This document shows positions 5,448-53,018 of a DNA stretch of 53,219 nt, piece after piece (position 1 is the first letter of the stretch; the number at the start of each line of letters is the position of its first letter). The notes beneath the pieces are model-generated. The model was given only the letters and a program-made list of their open reading frames with translations. It did no database searches and had not been told where the DNA came from. A program made the position numbers and the translations under genes. Origin of the DNA: Acutalibacteraceae bacterium (GTDB lineage Bacteria > Bacillota > Clostridia > Oscillospirales > Acutalibacteraceae); contig JAZNRX010000227.1 in NCBI GenBank assembly GCA_045590915.1, forward strand, positions 1 through 53,219, given 5' to 3'.

Positions 5448-7391
5448 TTACCAGATTACTCTCGTTTCGATTTCTTCGGAAATCAGCTTAATGAAGTCGG
5501 AAACGCTCTGAACACCCTGATCGCCGTGACCGCGTTTTCTTACGGAAACGGTGAAATCCTCAGCTTCCTTGTCACCGATAACAAGCATATAGGGGATTTT
5601 TTCAAGCTGTGCTTCTCTGAGCTTATAGCCCAGCTTTTCACTTCTTGTATCAACATCAACCTTTACAATGCCTGCTTCCTCAAGTGCTTTTTTAACGGCA
5701 TATGCGGCATCTTGATGACGGTCTGCAATGGGAAGAATACGTACCTTTTCGGGAGCAAGCCATACGGGGAAGGCACCTGCATACTTTTCAATAAGAAGAG
5801 CAAGTGTTCTTTCGTAGCATCCGATTGACGTACGGTGAATGATGTAAGGATTCTTCTTTGTGCCGTCGGGGGCAACATATTCCATACCGAATTTTTCAGC
5901 AAGCATCTGGTCAATCTGGATTGTGATAAGAGTATCCTCCTTGCCGTGAACATTCTTGATCTGAATGTCAAGCTTGGGGCCGTAGAAGGCGGCTGCACCG
6001 ATACCGATTTTGTAGTTGATGCCGAGGTTATCAAGGATTTCAGCCATAATTCCCTGTGCCTCATCCCACTGCTCCACTGTTCCGATATACTTATCCTTGT
6101 CATCGGGATCCCACTGTGAGAAACGGTAGGAAACATCCTCATAAAGACCTAAGGTTTTAAGCATAAAGGTTGTCAGCTCAAGACAGCTCTTGAATTCGTC
6201 ACTGAGCTGTTCGGGAGTGCACATAAGATGGCCTTCTGAAATTGTGAACTGACGCACACGGATAAGGCCGTGCATTTCACCGGAAGCCTCATTTCTGAAA
6301 AGCGTTGAGGTTTCGGCAAGTCTCATGGGAAGATCCCTGTATGAGCGTGCACGGTTTAAGTATGCTTGATACTGGAAGGGACAGGTCATGGGACGAAGGG
6401 CAAACACCTCATCATCCTTTTCCTCATCACCCATAACAAACATACCGTCCTTGTAGTGATCCCAGTGTCCCGAAATCTTATAAAGATCACTCTTTGCCAT
6501 AAGAGGAGTCTTGGTTCTCACCCAGCCTCTGCTTCTTTCCTCATCCTCAACAAAACGCTGAAGTGTCTGGATTATATCACAGCCCTTGGGAAGAAGAATG
6601 GGAAGTCCCTGACCAATGGTGTCAACAGTTGTGAATATTTCAAGCTCACGGCCAAGCTTATTGTGATCTCTTCTTTTTGCTTCCTCAAGTGCTTCAAGAT
6701 ATGCGTCAAGGTCTGCCTGCTTTGTGAAAGCAGTACCGTAAATTCTCTGAAGCATCTTGTTCTTTTCGTCGCCTCTCCAATATGCACCTGTGCAGGAGGT
6801 AAGCTTGAATGCCTTAACTCTTGAGGTATCGGGAAGATGTGGGCCGGCACAAAGCTCTGTGAATTCACCCTGCTTATAGAAGCTGATATTCTCGCCCTTG
6901 TCAGCGTGTTCCCTGATAAGCTCAACCTTATAGATTTCTCCCTGCTCCTCATAGAATTTAACAGCTTCATCGGGTGTCATTTCAAACTGAGTAAGCTCAA
7001 GTCCCTCTTTGACAATCTTCTTCATTTCAGCTTCAATTTTTTCAAGCTCCTCGGGAGAAAATGCCTTGGGAACATCAAAATCATAATAGAAGCCCTTATC
7101 TATTGCGGGACCGATAGCAAGCTTTGCTTCGGGATAAAGTCTTTTTACTGCCTGTGCGAGAATGTGGGAAGCGGTGTGGCGGAATGCCTTTTTACCGTCC
7201 TCATCATCAAATGTGAGAAATTCCACTTCGCAGTCTTTCTCAATCTTTGTGCGAAGGTCACAGAGGCTACCGTCAATTTTACATACGCATACTGCCTTAT
7301 AAAGACCTGCACCTATGGATTTTGCAATTTCAGCAGCAGAAATTCCGCTTTCAAACTGCTTTACATCATCTCTTAATTTTACGTTTACCAT
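5448..7391 (-). CDS. thrS: Threonine--tRNA ligase
   Basis: About 647 aa with an N-terminal TGS-like region, class II motifs (FRNEASGEMHGLIRVRQFT, AAFYGPKLD) and an anticodon-binding C-terminus. A T-box leader lies upstream. The ATG at 7391 is preferred over the GTG at 7400. Confidence 0.95.
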   Translation of the reverse strand: MVNVKLRDDVKQFESGISAAEIAKSIGAGLYKAVCVCKIDGSLCDLRTKIEKDCEVEFLTFDDEDGKKAFRHTASHILAQAVKRLYPEAKLAIGPAIDKGFYYDFDVPKAFSPEELEKIEAEMKKIVKEGLELTQFEMTPDEAVKFYEEQGEIYKVELIREHADKGENISFYKQGEFTELCAGPHLPDTSRVKAFKLTSCTGAYWRGDEKNKMLQRIYGTAFTKQADLDAYLEALEEAKRRDHNKLGRELEIFTTVDTIGQGLPILLPKGCDIIQTLQRFVEDEERSRGWVRTKTPLMAKSDLYKISGHWDHYKDGMFVMGDEEKDDEVFALRPMTCPFQYQAYLNRARSYRDLPMRLAETSTLFRNEASGEMHGLIRVRQFTISEGHLMCTPEQLSDEFKSCLELTTFMLKTLGLYEDVSYRFSQWDPDDKDKYIGTVEQWDEAQGIMAEILDNLGINYKIGIGAAAFYGPKLDIQIKNVHGKEDTLITIQIDQMLAEKFGMEYVAPDGTKKNPYIIHRTSIGCYERTLALLIEKYAGAFPVWLAPEKVRILPIADRHQDAAYAVKKALEEAGIVKVDVDTRSEKLGYKLREAQLEKIPYMLVIGDKEAEDFTVSVRKRGHGDQGVQSVSDFIKLISEEIETRVIW

Positions 7392-7411
7392 AAAAACCAC
7401 CCTTTATATGA

Positions 7412-7612
7412 GGTCGGAGTTCGGAAGTCGGAAGTAGGAGACCGAAAAACTGAACTTACCGCCATATTTTAACAAACAAAGCAAAACGAAGTTTTGCAAA
7501 ACAAGCCGTTTACGGCTTCCTTAACATTTGACAAAGTCAAATATATCACTCGTTTCAAAAAAAACGAATAACACTGCCCGCAAGGGCAATATCACTTGCA
7601 CCGACGGTGCAA
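7412..7612 (-). repeat. Composite intergenic repeat, copy A (degenerate heptad block plus six-hairpin array), reverse orientation
   Basis: Heptads are TCGGAGT TCGGAAG TCGGAAG TAGGAGA (7414-7441). Hairpins lie at 7481-7497, 7503-7518, 7527-7541, 7551-7566, 7575-7588 and 7596-7612. They are separated by TATATCACT / AATAACAC / ATATCAC, the reverse complement of GTGATAT. Confidence 0.75.
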
Positions 7613-28546: not shown

Positions 28547-28780
28547 AATGATATTTCTGCTTCGCAGAAGTGATATTGCCCTTCGGGCAGTGCATTATGA
28601 GCAACACGAATAACAAGGTTGTGACGGAGTCAGGTACTTATATTCTTTGCTATGCAAAGAGTGATATATTTTCCTGCGGAAAATGTGAAGCATTTGCATC
28701 GAACTTTCTCCGACTTCCGACCTTGCAAAGCACTGTTTTCTCCGAATTCCGAAATCCGAAATCCGAATTTGCAAAGCACT
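28547..28780 (+). repeat. Composite intergenic repeat, copy D (hairpin array plus two heptad blocks), forward orientation
   Basis: AATGATAT, GTGATAT, AGTGATATA and TGTGAAG alternate with hairpins at 28555-28569, 28577-28589, 28645-28659 and 28669-28683. Next come TCTCCGACTTCCGACC (28707-28722) and TCTCCGAATTCCGAAATCCGAAATCCGAATT (28739-28769). Each block is followed by TTGCAAAGCACT. Confidence 0.75.
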
Positions 28781-29720
28781 ATGCTGTCAGCTTGCGATTT
28801 ATTCTGAGCTTTCTGTTTTCACTTCTCCACGAATAGATTATTTCGGGATTTTCAAAAATTTCGTCTAATTTTTTAATAAAGGGAACTATTTCTCCGAAAT
28901 CAAGAGCACGGTGGTCAAAGGCTATACAGACAGGTAAAATCTGACGGACTTCAATTTCATCATTTTCCGTAACAAAAGGCTTTTTCTGAACGGCACCCAC
29001 ACCGAAGGCACACACCTGCGGAGGTACTATTTCAAGAAGTGCCATAGCACCCTTCTGTCCGAGATAGGTGGAGCCGATATTTGATACCGTAACCGTTCCC
29101 TGTTCAAGATCGAAGGCAGTCAGCCTTTCGGTTTCGGGGATGGCTTCATATTCCTTTTTTGCTTTTCCCGTTAAGGTCTTCACTCTGTGCTTGCCTGTTT
29201 TTGAGCCGATAAGCCTGTAAATCGTCTTTACCAATTTACCTTTTTTTAAGCCCTTCAGGGTATCATTAAGCGACACGGAAAAAAGTGCTTCGGTGAGATC
29301 CGTATTTTCCATCCGTCTTGTGACATCATTAATATATGCGGTCATCTCATCAAGGTCACGGCTTTCAAAATTTCTTAAATTCACCGTCATCATTTTTCCG
29401 TCAGGAAGAATTGTCGGCATAGAAATATCAATATTACTGAAAGTATTTATTTGACCTCGGACTAATCTTCTGTTAAAATTGATGTGTGAATTCATTTCGG
29501 GAGCAGCCTTAAGCCCCTCGGTTATGATTTTAAGGATAAGAGTATTAAAGGTGATTTTCGTTCTATATTCGGAATTCATTTTTTTGTAAAGACTATAAAG
29601 CTGTGTCACATCCGCTTCATACATATATGATACGTGAGGGATTTCTCTCCAGCTTTCACTTGTCATATTTGCAACTATCTTTCTTTGTATTCCGAAGTGT
29701 TCCGTTTTAATTGTGTTCAT
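28779..29720 (-). CDS. Stand-alone 2-oxoacid dehydrogenase E2-type acyltransferase catalytic domain (no lipoyl or E3-binding domains)
   Basis: 313 aa with the catalytic signature AFDHRALDFGE near the C-terminus, and SD AGGAG. The last roughly 17 codons and the stop codon run into repeat copy D. Confidence 0.7.
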   Translation of the reverse strand: MNTIKTEHFGIQRKIVANMTSESWREIPHVSYMYEADVTQLYSLYKKMNSEYRTKITFNTLILKIITEGLKAAPEMNSHINFNRRLVRGQINTFSNIDISMPTILPDGKMMTVNLRNFESRDLDEMTAYINDVTRRMENTDLTEALFSVSLNDTLKGLKKGKLVKTIYRLIGSKTGKHRVKTLTGKAKKEYEAIPETERLTAFDLEQGTVTVSNIGSTYLGQKGAMALLEIVPPQVCAFGVGAVQKKPFVTENDEIEVRQILPVCIAFDHRALDFGEIVPFIKKLDEIFENPEIIYSWRSENRKLRINRKLTA

Positions 29721-32459: not shown

Positions 32460-33575
32460 TCACTTGAAATACATATAAACCTGACATTTTATCATTCCGT
32501 TATAGAGCTTTCTTCTCTTGTCGGCTTTTCTGCCGAATGCCTTTTCAAACTCCTCATCGGCAGTGATTATTGTATAGCTTCTGCCCTTTTGGGCAGCAAA
32601 TCTTTCACCCATGGTTCTGTAAAGCTTTCTCGCATTTTCAATATCAAGCAGTCTCTCACCGTAAGGGGGATTTACAATAACCGTCGCTCTTTCGGTTTCG
32701 GGAGTGAAATCCTTAACATCTCTTAATGTGAAGGTGAGATATTTCTCAACACCCGCTTTTCTTGCATTCTCTCTTGCAATATCAAGAGCTACGGGATCTA
32801 TGTCATAACCGTAACCGTGGAAATCAATATCGTGCCTCTGACGGTCAACCGCCTCGCTTCTCTCCTTCTGCCATACCTCCGGGGGAACCTGTCTCCAAGC
32901 TTCCGCAGTGAATTTTCTGAATCTGCCGGGAGCTATATTAAGAGCCATCAGAGCACCCTCAATGAGAATTGTACCCGAGCCGCACATGGGATCGTAAAGG
33001 GAGTGATAGTGCCGAAGCTTTGAAATCTGACAAAGGGATGCCGCAAGAGTTTCCTTAAGAGGAGCGGCATTCGCATCGGGACGGTAGCCTCTCTTATGAA
33101 GACCTCTGCCCGAGGTGTCAATAAACAGCGACACCTGATTTTTCATTATGGAAAACTGAATCTGATAAAGAGATCCCGTTTCCTCAAACCACGGTATTGC
33201 ATATTTTGTTTTAAGCCTCTCCACAACCGCCTTTTTAATGATTGACTGACAGTCGCTGACACTGAAAAGATCGGAATTCAGAGAATATCCTTTTACGGGG
33301 AAACGGTCTTTTTTACCTATCCACTGCTCCCATGGAAGCTTTTTCGTACCCTGAAAAAGCTCCTCAAAGGAATGAGCCTCAAAGGTACCCACCATAACAA
33401 GTATTCTTTCAGCGAAGCGTGAACAGATATTTGCTCTCGCCAGAATATATTCATCACCCGAAAACAGCACTCTGCCGTTCTCGGCATTCACATCTTCAGC
33501 CCCCATCTCGCGAAGCTCATCTGCAATAAGCCCCTCAAGACCAAGTAAACAAGGAACGCAAAAATTTATTTTCAT
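32460..33575 (-). CDS. THUMP-domain class I SAM-dependent RNA methyltransferase (RlmL/YpsC-like)
   Basis: SAM motif I is DPMCGSGT and motif IV is NPPYGERL. The N-terminal region is THUMP-like. Confidence 0.8.
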   Translation of the reverse strand: MKINFCVPCLLGLEGLIADELREMGAEDVNAENGRVLFSGDEYILARANICSRFAERILVMVGTFEAHSFEELFQGTKKLPWEQWIGKKDRFPVKGYSLNSDLFSVSDCQSIIKKAVVERLKTKYAIPWFEETGSLYQIQFSIMKNQVSLFIDTSGRGLHKRGYRPDANAAPLKETLAASLCQISKLRHYHSLYDPMCGSGTILIEGALMALNIAPGRFRKFTAEAWRQVPPEVWQKERSEAVDRQRHDIDFHGYGYDIDPVALDIARENARKAGVEKYLTFTLRDVKDFTPETERATVIVNPPYGERLLDIENARKLYRTMGERFAAQKGRSYTIITADEEFEKAFGRKADKRRKLYNGMIKCQVYMYFK

Positions 33576-33596
33576 CGTTATTTCAACTCCAGTGCA

Positions 33597-34105
33597 AATT
33601 CGGAATTCGGAATTCGGAGGTTAATTAAACTTTTACTTCCCCCAAAATCTAAATCTATTTCCGCCCGTTTGTGCTTTCATTTTTTGTTCAGTTTATTTTT
33701 CTGAGTTTTGGTTATAGCAACAAGCATTTTTATTAACTCGTCACAATCCTTATAAATGCTGTCAAACTGTTCCTTTGTTATGTACTCACTTTCATACAAC
33801 AATTCCAACCAATAAGCACTTTCATCTGCTTCTTTCAACGAAACAGTAAGCTTCATATAAAAATCTGCATCAGTCTGAACCCTTGTACTTTCCCGGATAT
33901 TAGCACCAATACTTGTCCCCGAATGCAACAGCTGATTTGAAAGCACAAACTCCTTCTTTTCCGAGCACAGATATTTATTCAGCTTTATAATTCGCAAAGC
34001 AAAAGCCTTTGACTTATCACAAAGAATATTACACCTCAAAATATTCTCCTTCTAAACAGCTATAGCCGCTATTCATATTGTATCTTTTTCTCCGAAATCC
34101 GAATT
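33597..34105. mobile_element. 509-bp cassette bounded by inverted heptad blocks, carrying the four-helix-bundle gene (candidate non-autonomous element)
   Basis: The left end is AATTCGG x3 plus AGG (33597-33620). The right end is TCTCCGAAATCCGAATT (34089-34105). The innermost 17 nt match as inverted repeats at 15 of 17 positions. The cassette fills the whole intergenic gap and abuts the stop codon of the M42 peptidase gene. Confidence 0.55.
33677..34039 (-). CDS. Four-helix-bundle protein (23S rRNA intervening-sequence protein / Avd-like family)
   Basis: 120 aa: ...SNQLLHSGTSIGANIRES ... EADESAYWLELL, characteristic of this family. TTG start with AGGAG 6 nt upstream. AT-rich relative to the flanks. 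Confidence 0.75.
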   Translation of the reverse strand: MRCNILCDKSKAFALRIIKLNKYLCSEKKEFVLSNQLLHSGTSIGANIRESTRVQTDADFYMKLTVSLKEADESAYWLELLYESEYITKEQFDSIYKDCDELIKMLVAITKTQKNKLNKK

Positions 34106-35143
34106 TCAGATTGCGAAACCTGTGAGCAATCTGATTGTGTTTTCGACTCCGTCGATGTGGCTTCTTTCATAGCCGTGGGAGGAATATACGCCGGGACCTA
34201 TGAGTCCGTGGCGGAAATCATGTCCGGCACGAAGAGTGGCCTCTGCATCGCTTCCGTAATGAGGATAAATGTCAACTGCATAAGCTGCACCGGTTTTTTC
34301 CGCAGCCTCAATAAGCCTTGATGTCATATCATAGTTATATGGGCCTCCGGAATCCTTGGCACATATCGAAACCTGCTTTTCGGTGCAGATAAGTCCGTCT
34401 CCGACACAGCCCATATCAACGGAAAGCACTTCCGTTATCCCCTCAAAGGGAACTGCGGCAGCTCCGTGCCCGACTTCTTCATAAACCGTTATATGCAGAT
34501 ATATCTTTCTTTCGGGTGAAAGCTTTTCATCCTTCAGAAGCTTCGCAAAGCCTAAAATTGCCGCAACACTCAGCTTATCATCAAGAAAACGGCTTTTTAT
34601 ATAACCCGATTCCGTAACGACAGTTCTCGTATCAAAGGCAACAATATCGCCGTTTCCGATACCGAGTGCTTTCACATCATCCGCATTTTTCACATCCTCG
34701 TCAAGCACAACCTCCATATTATCAAAGCTGCGGTCGGTTTTGTTAAATTCGCCGTTGACATGGATTGAGGGATTTTTGAGAAGAAATGTGCCGTCATATA
34801 TACCGTTTTTTCTTGTTATGACACGGCAGTTTTCGCCCTCTGTATTAAAGCCGTTAAGTCCGCCGAGAGGTGTGATTCTCAGTCTGCCGTTACTCTTAAC
34901 CTCGGCAACCATTCCGCCGAGTGTATCAAGATGTGCTTCCAGAAGGAGTGCATTTTTTTCATCTTTTCCGCCGATTTCCACGGCAACTCCGCCTTTTTCA
35001 GTGATAAAAGCGGGACAGCCGACAGAAATAAACTCATTTCTGACAAATTCCGCCGCCGCTGAAGTGTATCCCGTCGGGGAATCGATCTTTAATATTTCAA
35101 CTGCTTTCTGAGTTGCAAATTCTGCATACTTTTTATACATCAT
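34106..35143 (-). CDS. M42-family metallo-aminopeptidase (FrvX/CelM-like)
   Basis: 345 aa with metal-ligand segments EAHLDTLG, FLDDKLSVA, YEEVGHGAA and SVDMG. Confidence 0.8.
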   Translation of the reverse strand: MMYKKYAEFATQKAVEILKIDSPTGYTSAAAEFVRNEFISVGCPAFITEKGGVAVEIGGKDEKNALLLEAHLDTLGGMVAEVKSNGRLRITPLGGLNGFNTEGENCRVITRKNGIYDGTFLLKNPSIHVNGEFNKTDRSFDNMEVVLDEDVKNADDVKALGIGNGDIVAFDTRTVVTESGYIKSRFLDDKLSVAAILGFAKLLKDEKLSPERKIYLHITVYEEVGHGAAAVPFEGITEVLSVDMGCVGDGLICTEKQVSICAKDSGGPYNYDMTSRLIEAAEKTGAAYAVDIYPHYGSDAEATLRAGHDFRHGLIGPGVYSSHGYERSHIDGVENTIRLLTGFAI

Positions 35144-42850: not shown

Positions 42851-42989
42851 AATTCGGAATTCGGAATTCGGATTTCGGAGAAACAATCAGCTTCAGTTTG
42901 TACTTCAAACTATTTAATTATTTATCATTAACAAAACACGACACTTAAAGTTTTCATATCTCCGAATTCCGAACTCCGAATTCCGAATT
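42851..42989. mobile_element. 139-bp MITE-like element with 31-nt heptad-repeat terminal inverted repeats, between nadB and nadC
   Basis: The left arm is AATTCGGAATTCGGAATTCGGATTTCGGAGA (42851-42881). The right arm is TCTCCGAATTCCGAACTCCGAATTCCGAATT (42959-42989). The arms are complementary at 29 of 31 positions and enclose a 77-bp AT-rich core. Confidence 0.7.
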
Positions 42990-52809: not shown

Positions 52810-53018
52810 AATGATATTCATAGCTTCGCTATGAGTGAAATTCATTCCTACGGAATGAGTGAAATTCTTTGCAATACAAAGAATGATATATTTTCCTGAG
52901 GAAAATATGAAGGAAGGCGTAAACGCCTTGTTCCGCTCCGCTCTAAAACACTCGTACCTTCGTTACATTGCTGAAATTTGATTGCATTTGTGTAGACCTG
53001 TCTCCGAATTCCGAATTC
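52810..53018 (+). repeat. Composite intergenic repeat, copy F (five exactly 24-nt-phased word-plus-hairpin units, then a heptad block), forward orientation
   Basis: Units start at 52810, 52834, 52858, 52882 and 52906. The words are AATGATATT, AGTGAAATT, AGTGAAATT, AATGATATA and TATGAAGG. Hairpins lie at 52819-52833, 52843-52857, 52867-52881, 52891-52905 and 52914-52929. The heptad block is TCTCCGAATTCCGAATTC (53001-53018). Confidence 0.8.

Follow-up and report, generated by a model that had tools for sequence, protein, structure and literature searches.

A widespread cassette of a four-helix-bundle gene between inverted heptad arrays, and its likeness to rRNA intervening sequences

The 53,219-nt stretch of DNA analysed here (hereafter the window; contig JAZNRX010000227.1 of the Acutalibacteraceae assembly GCA_045590915.1, positions 1 to 53,219) contains, between genes for an M42 peptidase and a THUMP methyltransferase, a small gene for a four-helix-bundle (4HB) protein, bounded on both sides by inverted blocks of a 7-nt repeat (heptad). 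Proteins of the same S23p/PF05635 family are encoded in rRNA intervening sequences (IVSs) of Coxiella, Leptospira, Brucella and Haemophilus, and in 16S/23S insertions of the candidate phyla radiation (CPR; PMC4990558, PMC11270868). The locus raises the question of what such a gene, enclosed by inverted repeats, is doing among protein-coding genes, and whether the arrangement is peculiar to this place. The initial annotation read the unit as an IVS-like inverted-repeat cassette outside rRNA. This reading holds, and it generalizes far beyond the window: the cassette belongs to a widespread and compact class, of which the window copy is an ordinary member. The anatomy of the cassette and the generality of its arrangement are put forward with high confidence. 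As far as could be found, the class has not been described as such so far, and no general link of the 4HB/S23p family to heptamer repeats was found in the literature, save for a local remark in one paper (PMC4990558).

Anatomy of the cassette and its recurrence

In the window, the cassette is a 509-nt unit (33597-34105) that fills the junction from the M42 peptidase stop codon to the Shine-Dalgarno (SD) sequence of the THUMP methyltransferase gene. It consists of a heptad arm, an SD sequence with an open reading frame (ORF) of the TIGR02436/PF05635 family on the minus strand, and a second heptad arm in inverted orientation. In gene orientation, the 5' arm (34089-34105; AATTCGGATTTCGGAGA on the minus strand, TCTCCGAAATCCGAATT on the plus strand) comprises two heptads and GAGA, and starts directly past the M42 stop codon (TCA on the plus strand, 34106-34108). 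The leader that follows (34040-34088, minus strand) holds the SD sequence AAGGAG at 34046-34051, 6 nt ahead of the TTG start of the 4HB gene (33677-34039, minus strand, 120 aa). A trailer (33621-33676, minus strand) then leads from the 4HB stop codon to the 3' arm (33597-33620; CCTCCGAATTCCGAATTCCGAATT on the minus strand, AATTCGGAATTCGGAATTCGGAGG on the plus strand), which has three heptads and is complementary to the 5' arm. Outside the cassette, a host intercistronic spacer on the same strand (33576-33596) holds the SD sequence of the THUMP methyltransferase gene.

The letters and coordinates of the arms and their abutment on the M42 stop codon, as the initial annotation gave them, all agree with the sequence, and so does its count of 15 matches over 17 positions when the inner 17 nt of the left block are set against the right block read in reverse complement. 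A repeat search of the window recovered the arm pair as stretches of 23 nt at 83% and 16 nt at 94% complementarity, spaced 470-479 nt. When the cassette RNA is folded to minimum free energy (z = -3.5), the predicted structure is closed by the arm stem. For the window copy, the predicted arm duplex has 16 bp and -23.6 kcal/mol; for relatives, it has 34-35 bp and -40 to -56 kcal/mol.

The generality of this arrangement was assessed on metagenome contigs scanned with an alignment of homologues, which yielded 80 loci (58-71% identity) and 66 distinct genes with both flanks. By a strict detector, period-7 arrays were present upstream of 57 and downstream of 51 of these 66 homologues. The complementarity score between a gene's own flanks had a median of 22, as against 7.5 for shuffled flanks and 11 for pairs taken across loci, while 153 random places on the same contigs scored 8 and at most 10.5. 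In nearly all cases, 7-nt repeats are strung together just upstream of the 4HB start, and their complementary counterpart sets in at the stop codon or overlapping it. Size statistics were taken from the 60 metagenome loci with an arm score of at least 14; here the median arm length was 33 nt, and the cassettes measured 408-610 nt (median 466 nt). The heptads vary by locus and include AATTCGG, AATGCGG, AATGCGT, AATTCAT, AATGAAG, AATTAAG, AGTTAGG and AATTAGC. The two arms of any one cassette agree in heptad although the loci differ.

A tblastn search of plasmid records returned 31 with a homologue. In the 14 of them that were examined, every homologue stands between inverted heptad arrays, the proteins being 38-55% identical to that of the window. 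The five phyla represented are Spirochaetota, Bacteroidota, Cyanobacteriota, Chloroflexota and Bacillota, the carriers being Treponema saccharophilum (plasmid pTS1), Bernardetia, Chondrinema, Monoglobus pectinilyticus, two Chlorohelix plasmids and eight cyanobacteria. Their heptads include TTAGTGA, ACTGGTC, AAGTCGG, GATTTTA, GTAAAAA, TAATTCG and GAAAGNG, and in Planktothrix both GATTTAC and CCCCAAT; the latter is the unit of STRR1. Copies of the 4HB gene other than that of the window, whose lack of such blocks the initial annotation had named as counting against it, are flanked by heptad blocks almost without exception among the 66 metagenome and 14 plasmid homologues. Phage records mark the limit of the arm rule within PF05635: a homologue occurs in two of 50,697, both distant (35-42% identity) and without heptad arms. 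Upstream of these two genes (L237 and L238, unverified records from human faeces), several copies of an 8-mer are dispersed in either orientation; the 8-mer is GTGATATT in the one record and TGAAATAT in the other. One of the genes is followed by a terminator-like hairpin.

The protein itself is a clear member of its family, with profile scores of 96.5 bits for PF05635 (cut-off 33.8; residues 6-107) and 107.4 bits for TIGR02436 (cut-off 24; residues 7-114). A profile built from 20 homologues found PDB 2RLD (5 chains), a protein of Bacteroides thetaiotaomicron, as the closest solved structure (E = 1e-48). The conserved family motif GxxRxxxSxxxNxxE (PMC3936711) includes R-x3-S-x3-N-x2-E, of which S43, N47 and E50 are present in the window protein and invariant among the 20 homologues. 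Codon 39 (window 33923-33925) encodes histidine in the window protein, where at least 90% of the 20 close homologues have R39. The family is large, with 16,284 clusters at 50% identity (E <= 1e-3). The 4HB ORF is the sole ORF of the cassette; profile scans found no transposase or recombinase domain in it, and none is encoded nearby. No reverse transcriptase was present among the flanking ORFs scanned (within about 3 kb), template and variable repeats not having been searched for. A survey of cas genes recorded 18 such genes in cas loci and left them unexplained (PMC3936711), and a survey of 2024 still termed the protein 'functionally uncharacterized' (PMC11270868).

Host operons and the history of one junction

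Both neighbours of the cassette in the window, a THUMP/RlmL-like methyltransferase (32460-33575, minus strand) and an M42 peptidase (34106-35143, minus strand), were identified by profiles as the initial annotation had them, as was the four-helix-bundle family. They form a co-directional cluster of four genes, in the order M42 peptidase, 4HB, THUMP methyltransferase and Na/Pi cotransporter; the genes within about 3 kb are these three neighbours and one for a major facilitator superfamily transporter. The 4HB gene was also correctly described as AT-rich, with 34.7% GC against 44.8% and 46.0% in the genes on either side. No promoter-like or terminator-like sites were detected in the region of the window copy, where 2.1 and 0.7 were expected. 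An Rfam scan of the same region matched no family, and the PADLOC defence models gave zero matches.

The same placement within operons is found elsewhere. In the metagenome set, the 4HB gene has the orientation of both neighbours in 28 loci and the opposite one in 3. The 5' arm begins a few bases past the stop codon of the upstream gene and the 3' arm begins at the 4HB stop codon; at the window locus and in relatives, 17-25 nt separate the end of the 3' arm from the start of the next gene, which thus keeps its SD sequence. The neighbouring genes are diverse and include restriction-modification (R-M) subunits, ABC permeases, SmpB, EngA, Ddl and RuvC, among others. On plasmids, the cassettes stand between HsdS and HsdR (Monoglobus pectinilyticus), helicase and methylase, DUF1156 and Swt1-HEPN, cas2 and cas1, or resistance-nodulation-division (RND) adaptor and permease genes, or beside xisH. 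A look for cassettes inside rRNA found no conserved 23S motif in any of the cassette loci examined.

About one-quarter of the neighbours are restriction-modification or helicase genes, an apparent excess by raw count. A similar share of the cassettes, about a quarter, lies within R-M or helicase-methylase operons, for example between HsdS and HsdR, and others adjoin cas1/cas2. On plasmids of the cyanobacterium Gloeocapsa PCC 7428 (L230) and the Chloroflexi bacterium Chlorohelix allophototropha (L231) alike, a DUF1156 methylase-like gene is followed by the 4HB gene and then by a Swt1-family HEPN gene, and the two cassettes share the heptad family GATTTTA/GATTTGG. Here a whole defence-type operon may have moved together with its passenger cassette.

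The heptad follows the protein rather than the place. Where 4HB proteins are at least 90% identical, the heptad is the same in different contexts, and at about 82% identity one to three heptad bases differ. Because the heptad tracks protein identity across contexts, the arms and the ORF are taken to travel and diverge together as one unit.

The M42-THUMP junction allows this history to be followed at one site. The exact window protein is recorded in just one other contig (L001), which ends inside a heptad array. The order of M42, 4HB, THUMP and Na/Pi genes is kept, with 4HB proteins 80-84% identical, in one NCBI assembly and several metagenome contigs from ENA. In L002, L003, L004 and L007, the M42-4HB-THUMP arrangement is kept with inverted arms of four heptads, in the pattern AATTCGG x4 and GAGA at one end, TCTC and CGAATTC x4 at the other. 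The heptads number 2-3 per arm in the window and 4-5 in relatives. Relatives with the gene at this locus have the blocks as well, their absence being the observation that the initial annotation had named as speaking against it. The arms are near-identical among the relatives while leader and trailer are unalignable. Synonymous sites are saturated between these genomes (dS, the synonymous divergence, is 1.4-3.6), and the ratio of non-synonymous to synonymous divergence (dN/dS) of the 4HB gene among relatives is 0.03-0.07 (0.04-0.07 for the window gene against L002, L003 and L007), similar to the housekeeping neighbours. Near-identical arms and low dN/dS in spite of saturated dS indicate that constraint acts on the arms as well as on the protein. 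Further, since the cassette is shared across relatives with dS above 1, comparison of the sequences indicates that it is old and vertically inherited at this junction, and not a recent insertion.

The junction shows three different states among close relatives. Besides the shared cassette, a contig whose THUMP protein is 89% identical (L216, 2424-3000) has at the M42-THUMP junction a cassette with AATTAGG/AATTAAG arms and a 4HB protein only 67% identical to that of the window; its 4HB dN is 0.23 against 0.05-0.07 for THUMP, and the outermost right heptad is still CCGAATT. This cassette is the result either of concerted evolution of its arms on the spot or of an exchange through recombination within the arrays. 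Another relative, with THUMP 88% identical (L201-L206, 2866-3000), lacks a 4HB gene at the junction and has instead a spacer of 135 nt, closed off by a perfect inverted repeat of 16 nt (AAATCATAATTTATCG / CGATAAATTATGATTT); the spacer may be a decayed or a different cassette. Where THUMP is only 71-82% identical to that of the window, synteny is lost and no empty site could be read.

Tandem duplications of the 4HB 3' end together with the right arm were observed in three of the relatives, as four copies of about 173 nt (L003:5363-5995), two copies (L004:1586-1858) and two copies of 230 nt (L007:5399-5702, with the junction at TTGGT(T)GG microhomology); the copy number varies between samples. 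Contigs assembled from the source sample (run X1) break inside the heptad arrays, at window 33597-33619 and 34087, and loose contig ends at the window arrays run into other arrays (AATGCGT, CCGACTT). The repeats thus fragment short-read assemblies, and copy numbers taken from contigs need care.

Arrays without the gene, and the readings weighed

Heptad arrays are not confined to the cassette. The heptad AATTCGGAATTCGG, with up to 2 mismatches, has 18 matches in the window where 0.65 are expected (about 28-fold), a number reached in none of 100 shuffles, and period-7 arrays number 7 as against 0.22 in shuffles. Besides the cassette, the window has five further array sites, one of them an ORF-less inverted pair. 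This pair (42851-42989) has cassette-type heptad arms of the same polarity (42851-42882 and 42959-42989) that enclose about 76 nt. Its arms bear out the earlier statement that the cassette ends are the heptad module of an inverted-repeat element elsewhere in the window. A 30-bp duplex of -48.8 kcal/mol is predicted for it. Two co-directional ORFs enclose it, the first ending 25 nt before it; it is the 4HB cassette's short counterpart. The same module also occurs as orphan arrays: at 28707-28783 there are two units (TCTCCGACTTCCGACC and TCTCCGAATTCCGAAATCCGAAATCCGAATT), with T(T)GCAAAGCACT after each, and further arrays lie at 53001-53018 (TCTCCGAATTCCGAATTC) and 7410-7442 (GAGGTCGGAGTTCGGAAGTCGGAAGTAGGAGACC), the last immediately upstream of a threonyl-tRNA synthetase-like ORF (5448-7400, minus strand). 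The right arms of cassettes in relatives likewise end in AATT-TGCA. No further arrays were found beside the cassettes in the 7-10 kb loci of the relatives.

In other genomes the arrays are more common than the gene. Scanned for exact matches of CTCCGAAWTCCGAAWTCCGAA, species-representative genomes gave at least 112 loci, and those listed span Cyanobacteria, Planctomycetes, Verrucomicrobia, Acidobacteria, Chloroflexi, Bacteroidota, Fibrobacter and Oscillospiraceae/Acutalibacteraceae, among others. An inverted partner lies 4-410 nt away in 18 of the 84 listed arrays with enough flank, and in none of 84 shuffled ones. Among the loci listed, solitary arrays and ORF-less hairpins far outnumber coding cassettes. 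The alternative offered in the initial annotation, that the gene is cargo of the repeat element, gains comparative support from the ORF-less pairs, the orphan arrays, the unrelated operons that carry the unit and the identity of heptads among proteins at least 90% identical.

On balance, we lean towards the cassette being an IVS-type element of mRNA operons, whose arms pair in the transcript and are processed by RNase III, and which spreads at low cost to its host. This mechanism is suggested because ORF-bearing 23S IVSs share with the cassette their size, protein family, terminal stem and tandem heptamers. The cassette would be transcribed solely by read-through from the host operon, here from the M42 gene through the 4HB and THUMP genes to the Na/Pi gene. 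In the polycistronic RNA, the arms would pair into a long duplex that draws the host flanks together. RNase III would then cut the duplex and so excise or insulate the cassette RNA, which would make the insertion tolerable to operons and rRNA alike; by analogy with the IVSs, we give such processing of the arm stem an even chance. Tandem arms could pair in any register, and the stem would in this way outlast the slippage that often adds or removes heptads. Such an element may be selfish or commensal, spreading horizontally and leaving ORF-less hairpins and orphan arrays behind. For the protein, the favoured role, by analogy with its nucleic-acid-binding relative Avd, is that it binds the heptad duplex of its own cassette.

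Covariation between the arms was measured on 44 phase-aligned arm pairs. Double-sided changes numbered 130, against 49.7 +/- 5.1 in shuffles, none of 500 shuffles reaching 130. The covariation score of 0.365 fell to 0.068 or less when the partner was slid by 1-3 columns. In orthologous Nostoc cassettes upstream of xisH, AAGTCGG//CCGACTT stands against AAGTCGC//GCGACTT, a compensatory change in every unit. One of these, on plasmid pNsp_b of Nostoc sp. ATCC 53789 (L236), has a right arm of about 40 GCGACTT/ACGACTT units between the 4HB stop and xisH and a left arm of 4; the orthologous cassette of N. punctiforme has 4 + 4 units, with the heptad differing at one position in both arms. An idea that the heptads act as stop signals in three frames was dropped, the commonest heptads, AATTCGG and AATGCGG, being without a stop codon.

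Several results weigh against an RNA-level element of this kind. The stem of the window copy, at just 16 bp, is short for RNase III. The sole metatranscriptome run that covers the region (X12) consists of low-depth contigs of related strains, with no read ends, and the RNA-labelled runs for a cassette from the human gut (L154) proved to be assembled contigs or mislabelled DNA. A 4HB ORF lies within 300 nt at only 2 of the 112 array loci, among the matches listed. A broad hidden Markov model (HMM) built from 150 family representatives and plasmid proteins still gave 2 of 112 among the matches listed, which speaks against diverged 4HB genes hidden at the orphan arrays. As orphan arrays greatly outnumber cassettes, the arrays need no 4HB gene in cis. 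Empty sites, which the initial annotation had suggested seeking in relatives, were looked for and no clean one was found: L201 holds its 135-nt inverted-repeat spacer, and Nostoc plasmids without the cassette (C057) have about 200 nt of unrelated DNA at the site. No target-site duplication was seen at the boundaries of the cassettes of the window, L002, L003, L007 and L216.

The covariation has weaknesses of its own. The share of paired cells, 89.5% against 75.3% in shuffles, is inflated by the picking of the arm pairs by complementarity; the use of different heptads at different loci is independent of this bias. At heptad position 4 (T/G), the two arms show no coordination (G:A 70, T:C 49), and many stems thus carry periodic mismatches. 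In L121-L200, both T and G are found at position 4 in alternation within one and the same array (AATTCGG/AATGCGG, AATTCAT/AATGCAT), and positions 5-7 covary. As a test of selection at the RNA level, sense-strand G:U pairs (40) did not significantly exceed A:C (26; about p = 0.1). Finally, the terminal inverted repeats of a DNA transposon would likewise covary.

The last point leads to a possible, if doubtful, alternative, namely that the cassette is a mobile element at the level of DNA. The arrays would be terminal inverted repeats or hairpin recombination sites in single-stranded DNA, and the RNA stem would be incidental. The 4HB protein or a host enzyme would serve as mobility factor, and ORF-less pairs and orphan arrays would be derivatives or footprints resembling MITEs, the miniature inverted-repeat transposable elements. 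Such an element is compatible with the RNA model. The arms covary as transposon ends do, ORF-less pairs with cassette-type arms exist, as at window 42851-42989, and the inverted partners of the 18 listed orphan arrays, with none in the shuffles, fit the same picture. Similarly, the contexts are diverse, with proteins 65-70% identical named as Oscillospiraceae, Spirochaetales and Synergistaceae in their source records; the M42-THUMP junction exists in its three states; and the excess of G:U that RNA-level selection predicts is not significant. Earlier authors, too, held IVSs to be remnants of transposition or mobile elements with a mobility ORF (cited in PMC4990558). However, mobility of this kind is poorly served by boundaries without target-site duplications, wherever inspected, and by the want of a clean empty site among both the M42-THUMP relatives and the Nostoc plasmids. 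A 120-aa helical bundle is unlike known transposases and recombinases, none of which is encoded nearby, and the cassette stayed at the M42-THUMP junction while dS passed 1. Co-orientation with host transcription (28 against 3) is also not demanded by a model confined to DNA.

It is quite unlikely that the arrays are primary, as slippage elements of the STRR type that act as intercistronic signals for regulation or mRNA stability, with the 4HB protein binding cognate arrays in trans and the arrays around its own gene being autoregulatory. Gene-less arrays are indeed very common and occur in many phyla, and heptamer repeats are known to be abundant between genes in Xanthomonas, Nostoc, Microcystis and Beggiatoaceae (PMC4692102, PMC4679880). 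The orphan arrays of the window share the heptad of the cassette arms, the heptad type drifts along with the protein sequence, the protein is strongly constrained, and arrays just upstream of start codons recall the TAACTGA repeats (PMC4692102, PMC4679880). But this leaves unexplained why the gene has inverted, complementary arrays at its sides and not direct ones, why the size is constant at 408-610 nt and equal to that of rRNA IVSs, and why the whole unit recurs in dozens of unrelated operons. A chance juxtaposition of two low-complexity repeats around an ordinary small gene, to which the window copy alone with its 15/17 match and 16-bp stem might have given some colour, is refuted by the roughly 28-fold enrichment of the heptad module in the window, the conservation of the arrangement at orthologous loci and its recurrence around almost every homologue examined, with scores that random-location and shuffle controls never reach.

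A further and rather unlikely proposal is that 4HB proteins of the TIGR02436 branch are sequence-specific binders of 7-nt-periodic nucleic acid, duplex RNA or DNA, each paralogue with its own heptad. If so, the orphan arrays, which number in the thousands in bacterial genomes, would be targets in trans or proliferated non-autonomous derivatives of cassettes, those of STRR, GGGAATC, TAACTGA and the AATTCGG family included. Ribosomal RNA IVSs, heptamer repeats and S23p/Avd-like proteins would then make up one system with a readable protein-heptad code.

The cassette class bears on three puzzles that are about 30 years old: the origin and spread of IVSs, the function of the S23p protein, and the excess of heptanucleotides in intergenic DNA. 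It also bears on annotation: cassettes within operons for restriction-modification, CRISPR, BREX-like systems and transporters, which earlier work took for potential system components (PMC3936711), may be passengers. A vague annotation is thereby turned into testable hypotheses, namely RNase III processing at the arms, binding of heptad duplexes by a pentamer, and mobility of the unit.

Comparison with known systems

Integron cassettes resemble the 4HB cassette in being compact and promoterless, with a single ORF and imperfect inverted repeats, and in their expression from an upstream host promoter in the same orientation. Unlike them, the 4HB cassette has no attC, integrase or attI platform, and it occurs singly in ordinary operons rather than in arrays. 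MITEs, repetitive extragenic palindromes (REP) and bacterial interspersed mosaic elements (BIME) are likewise short, dispersed and intergenic, bounded by inverted repeats and often co-transcribed with operons, and in them, too, ORF-less copies outnumber coding ones. In contrast, the arms of the cassette are tandem 7-mers and not unique termini, its coding copy is a 120-aa helical bundle, and neither a transposase or RAYT-like gene nor a target-site duplication was seen for it.

Heptamer repeats have been reported from several bacteria. In Xanthomonas, GGGAATC forms about 70 convergent inverted pairs, Nostoc has GGGGATT (PMC4692102), and TAACTGA is found in Beggiatoaceae, cyanobacteria and Bacteroidetes (PMC4679880). 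The explanations offered were G-quadruplexes, translational control and polymerase slippage, and the terms S23, 'intervening sequence' and 'four helix' are absent from both papers. Repeats of the STRR type, known from cyanobacteria, and these heptamers share with the cassette arms a period of 7, an intergenic or intercistronic position, a copy number that varies among relatives, occurrence in inverted pairs and a sporadic distribution across phyla. They differ in that the arrays of the cassette are the complementary arms of a gene unit.

Avd, the accessory protein of diversity-generating retroelements (DGRs), is described as a barrel-shaped pentamer with positive charge that resembles S23 proteins, in a study that also examined the folds of DGR RNA for Avd-binding stem-loops and for duplexes of sequences that flank the template repeat (TR; bioRxiv 10.1101/2023.10.23.563531). 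The 4HB protein belongs to the same superfamily, with its pentameric barrel of four-helix bundles, and Avd, for its part, works in DGRs with RNA whose template lies between complementary segments. Avd and the window protein differ in that the latter is of the TIGR02436 branch and has no reverse transcriptase among the flanking ORFs scanned, a comparison made without a search for template or variable repeats.

The closest likeness is to the rRNA IVSs. In Coxiella burnetii, the IVS is 428-444 nt long and lies in helix 45 of 23S rRNA, the inverted repeats at its ends make up a 28-bp stem within which RNase III cleaves, with excision in vitro, and two to three tandem GACAGAT heptamers, in a number that varies among strains, stand just upstream of the S23p ORF (PMC4990558). 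The sizes agree, at 428-444 nt in Coxiella, 509 nt in the window and 408-610 nt for the class, and both have stem-forming terminal inverted repeats (28 bp in Coxiella, 16 bp in the window, 34-35 bp in relatives of the latter). Tandem heptamers of strain-variable copy number at the 5' end are common to the two, as are the want of a promoter of their own, expression by way of the host transcript, and the existence of shorter versions without an ORF. In contrast, IVSs lie in helix 25 or 45 of 23S rRNA and the cassette between the protein-coding genes of operons; the ORF of Coxiella is decaying and probably untranslated, whereas that of the cassette has a good SD sequence and is under purifying selection; and excision by RNase III has been demonstrated for IVSs and is predicted for the cassette. 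The link to IVSs is closer than the initial annotation held, the Coxiella IVS having tandem heptamers inside its terminal stem. Taken together, the data say that rRNA IVSs, the S23p/4HB protein and bacterial heptad repeats are parts of one element: an IVS-sized unit, in the large majority of cases with the 4HB gene between complementary arrays, that resides mostly in mRNA operons and of which the insertions in rRNA are a special case.

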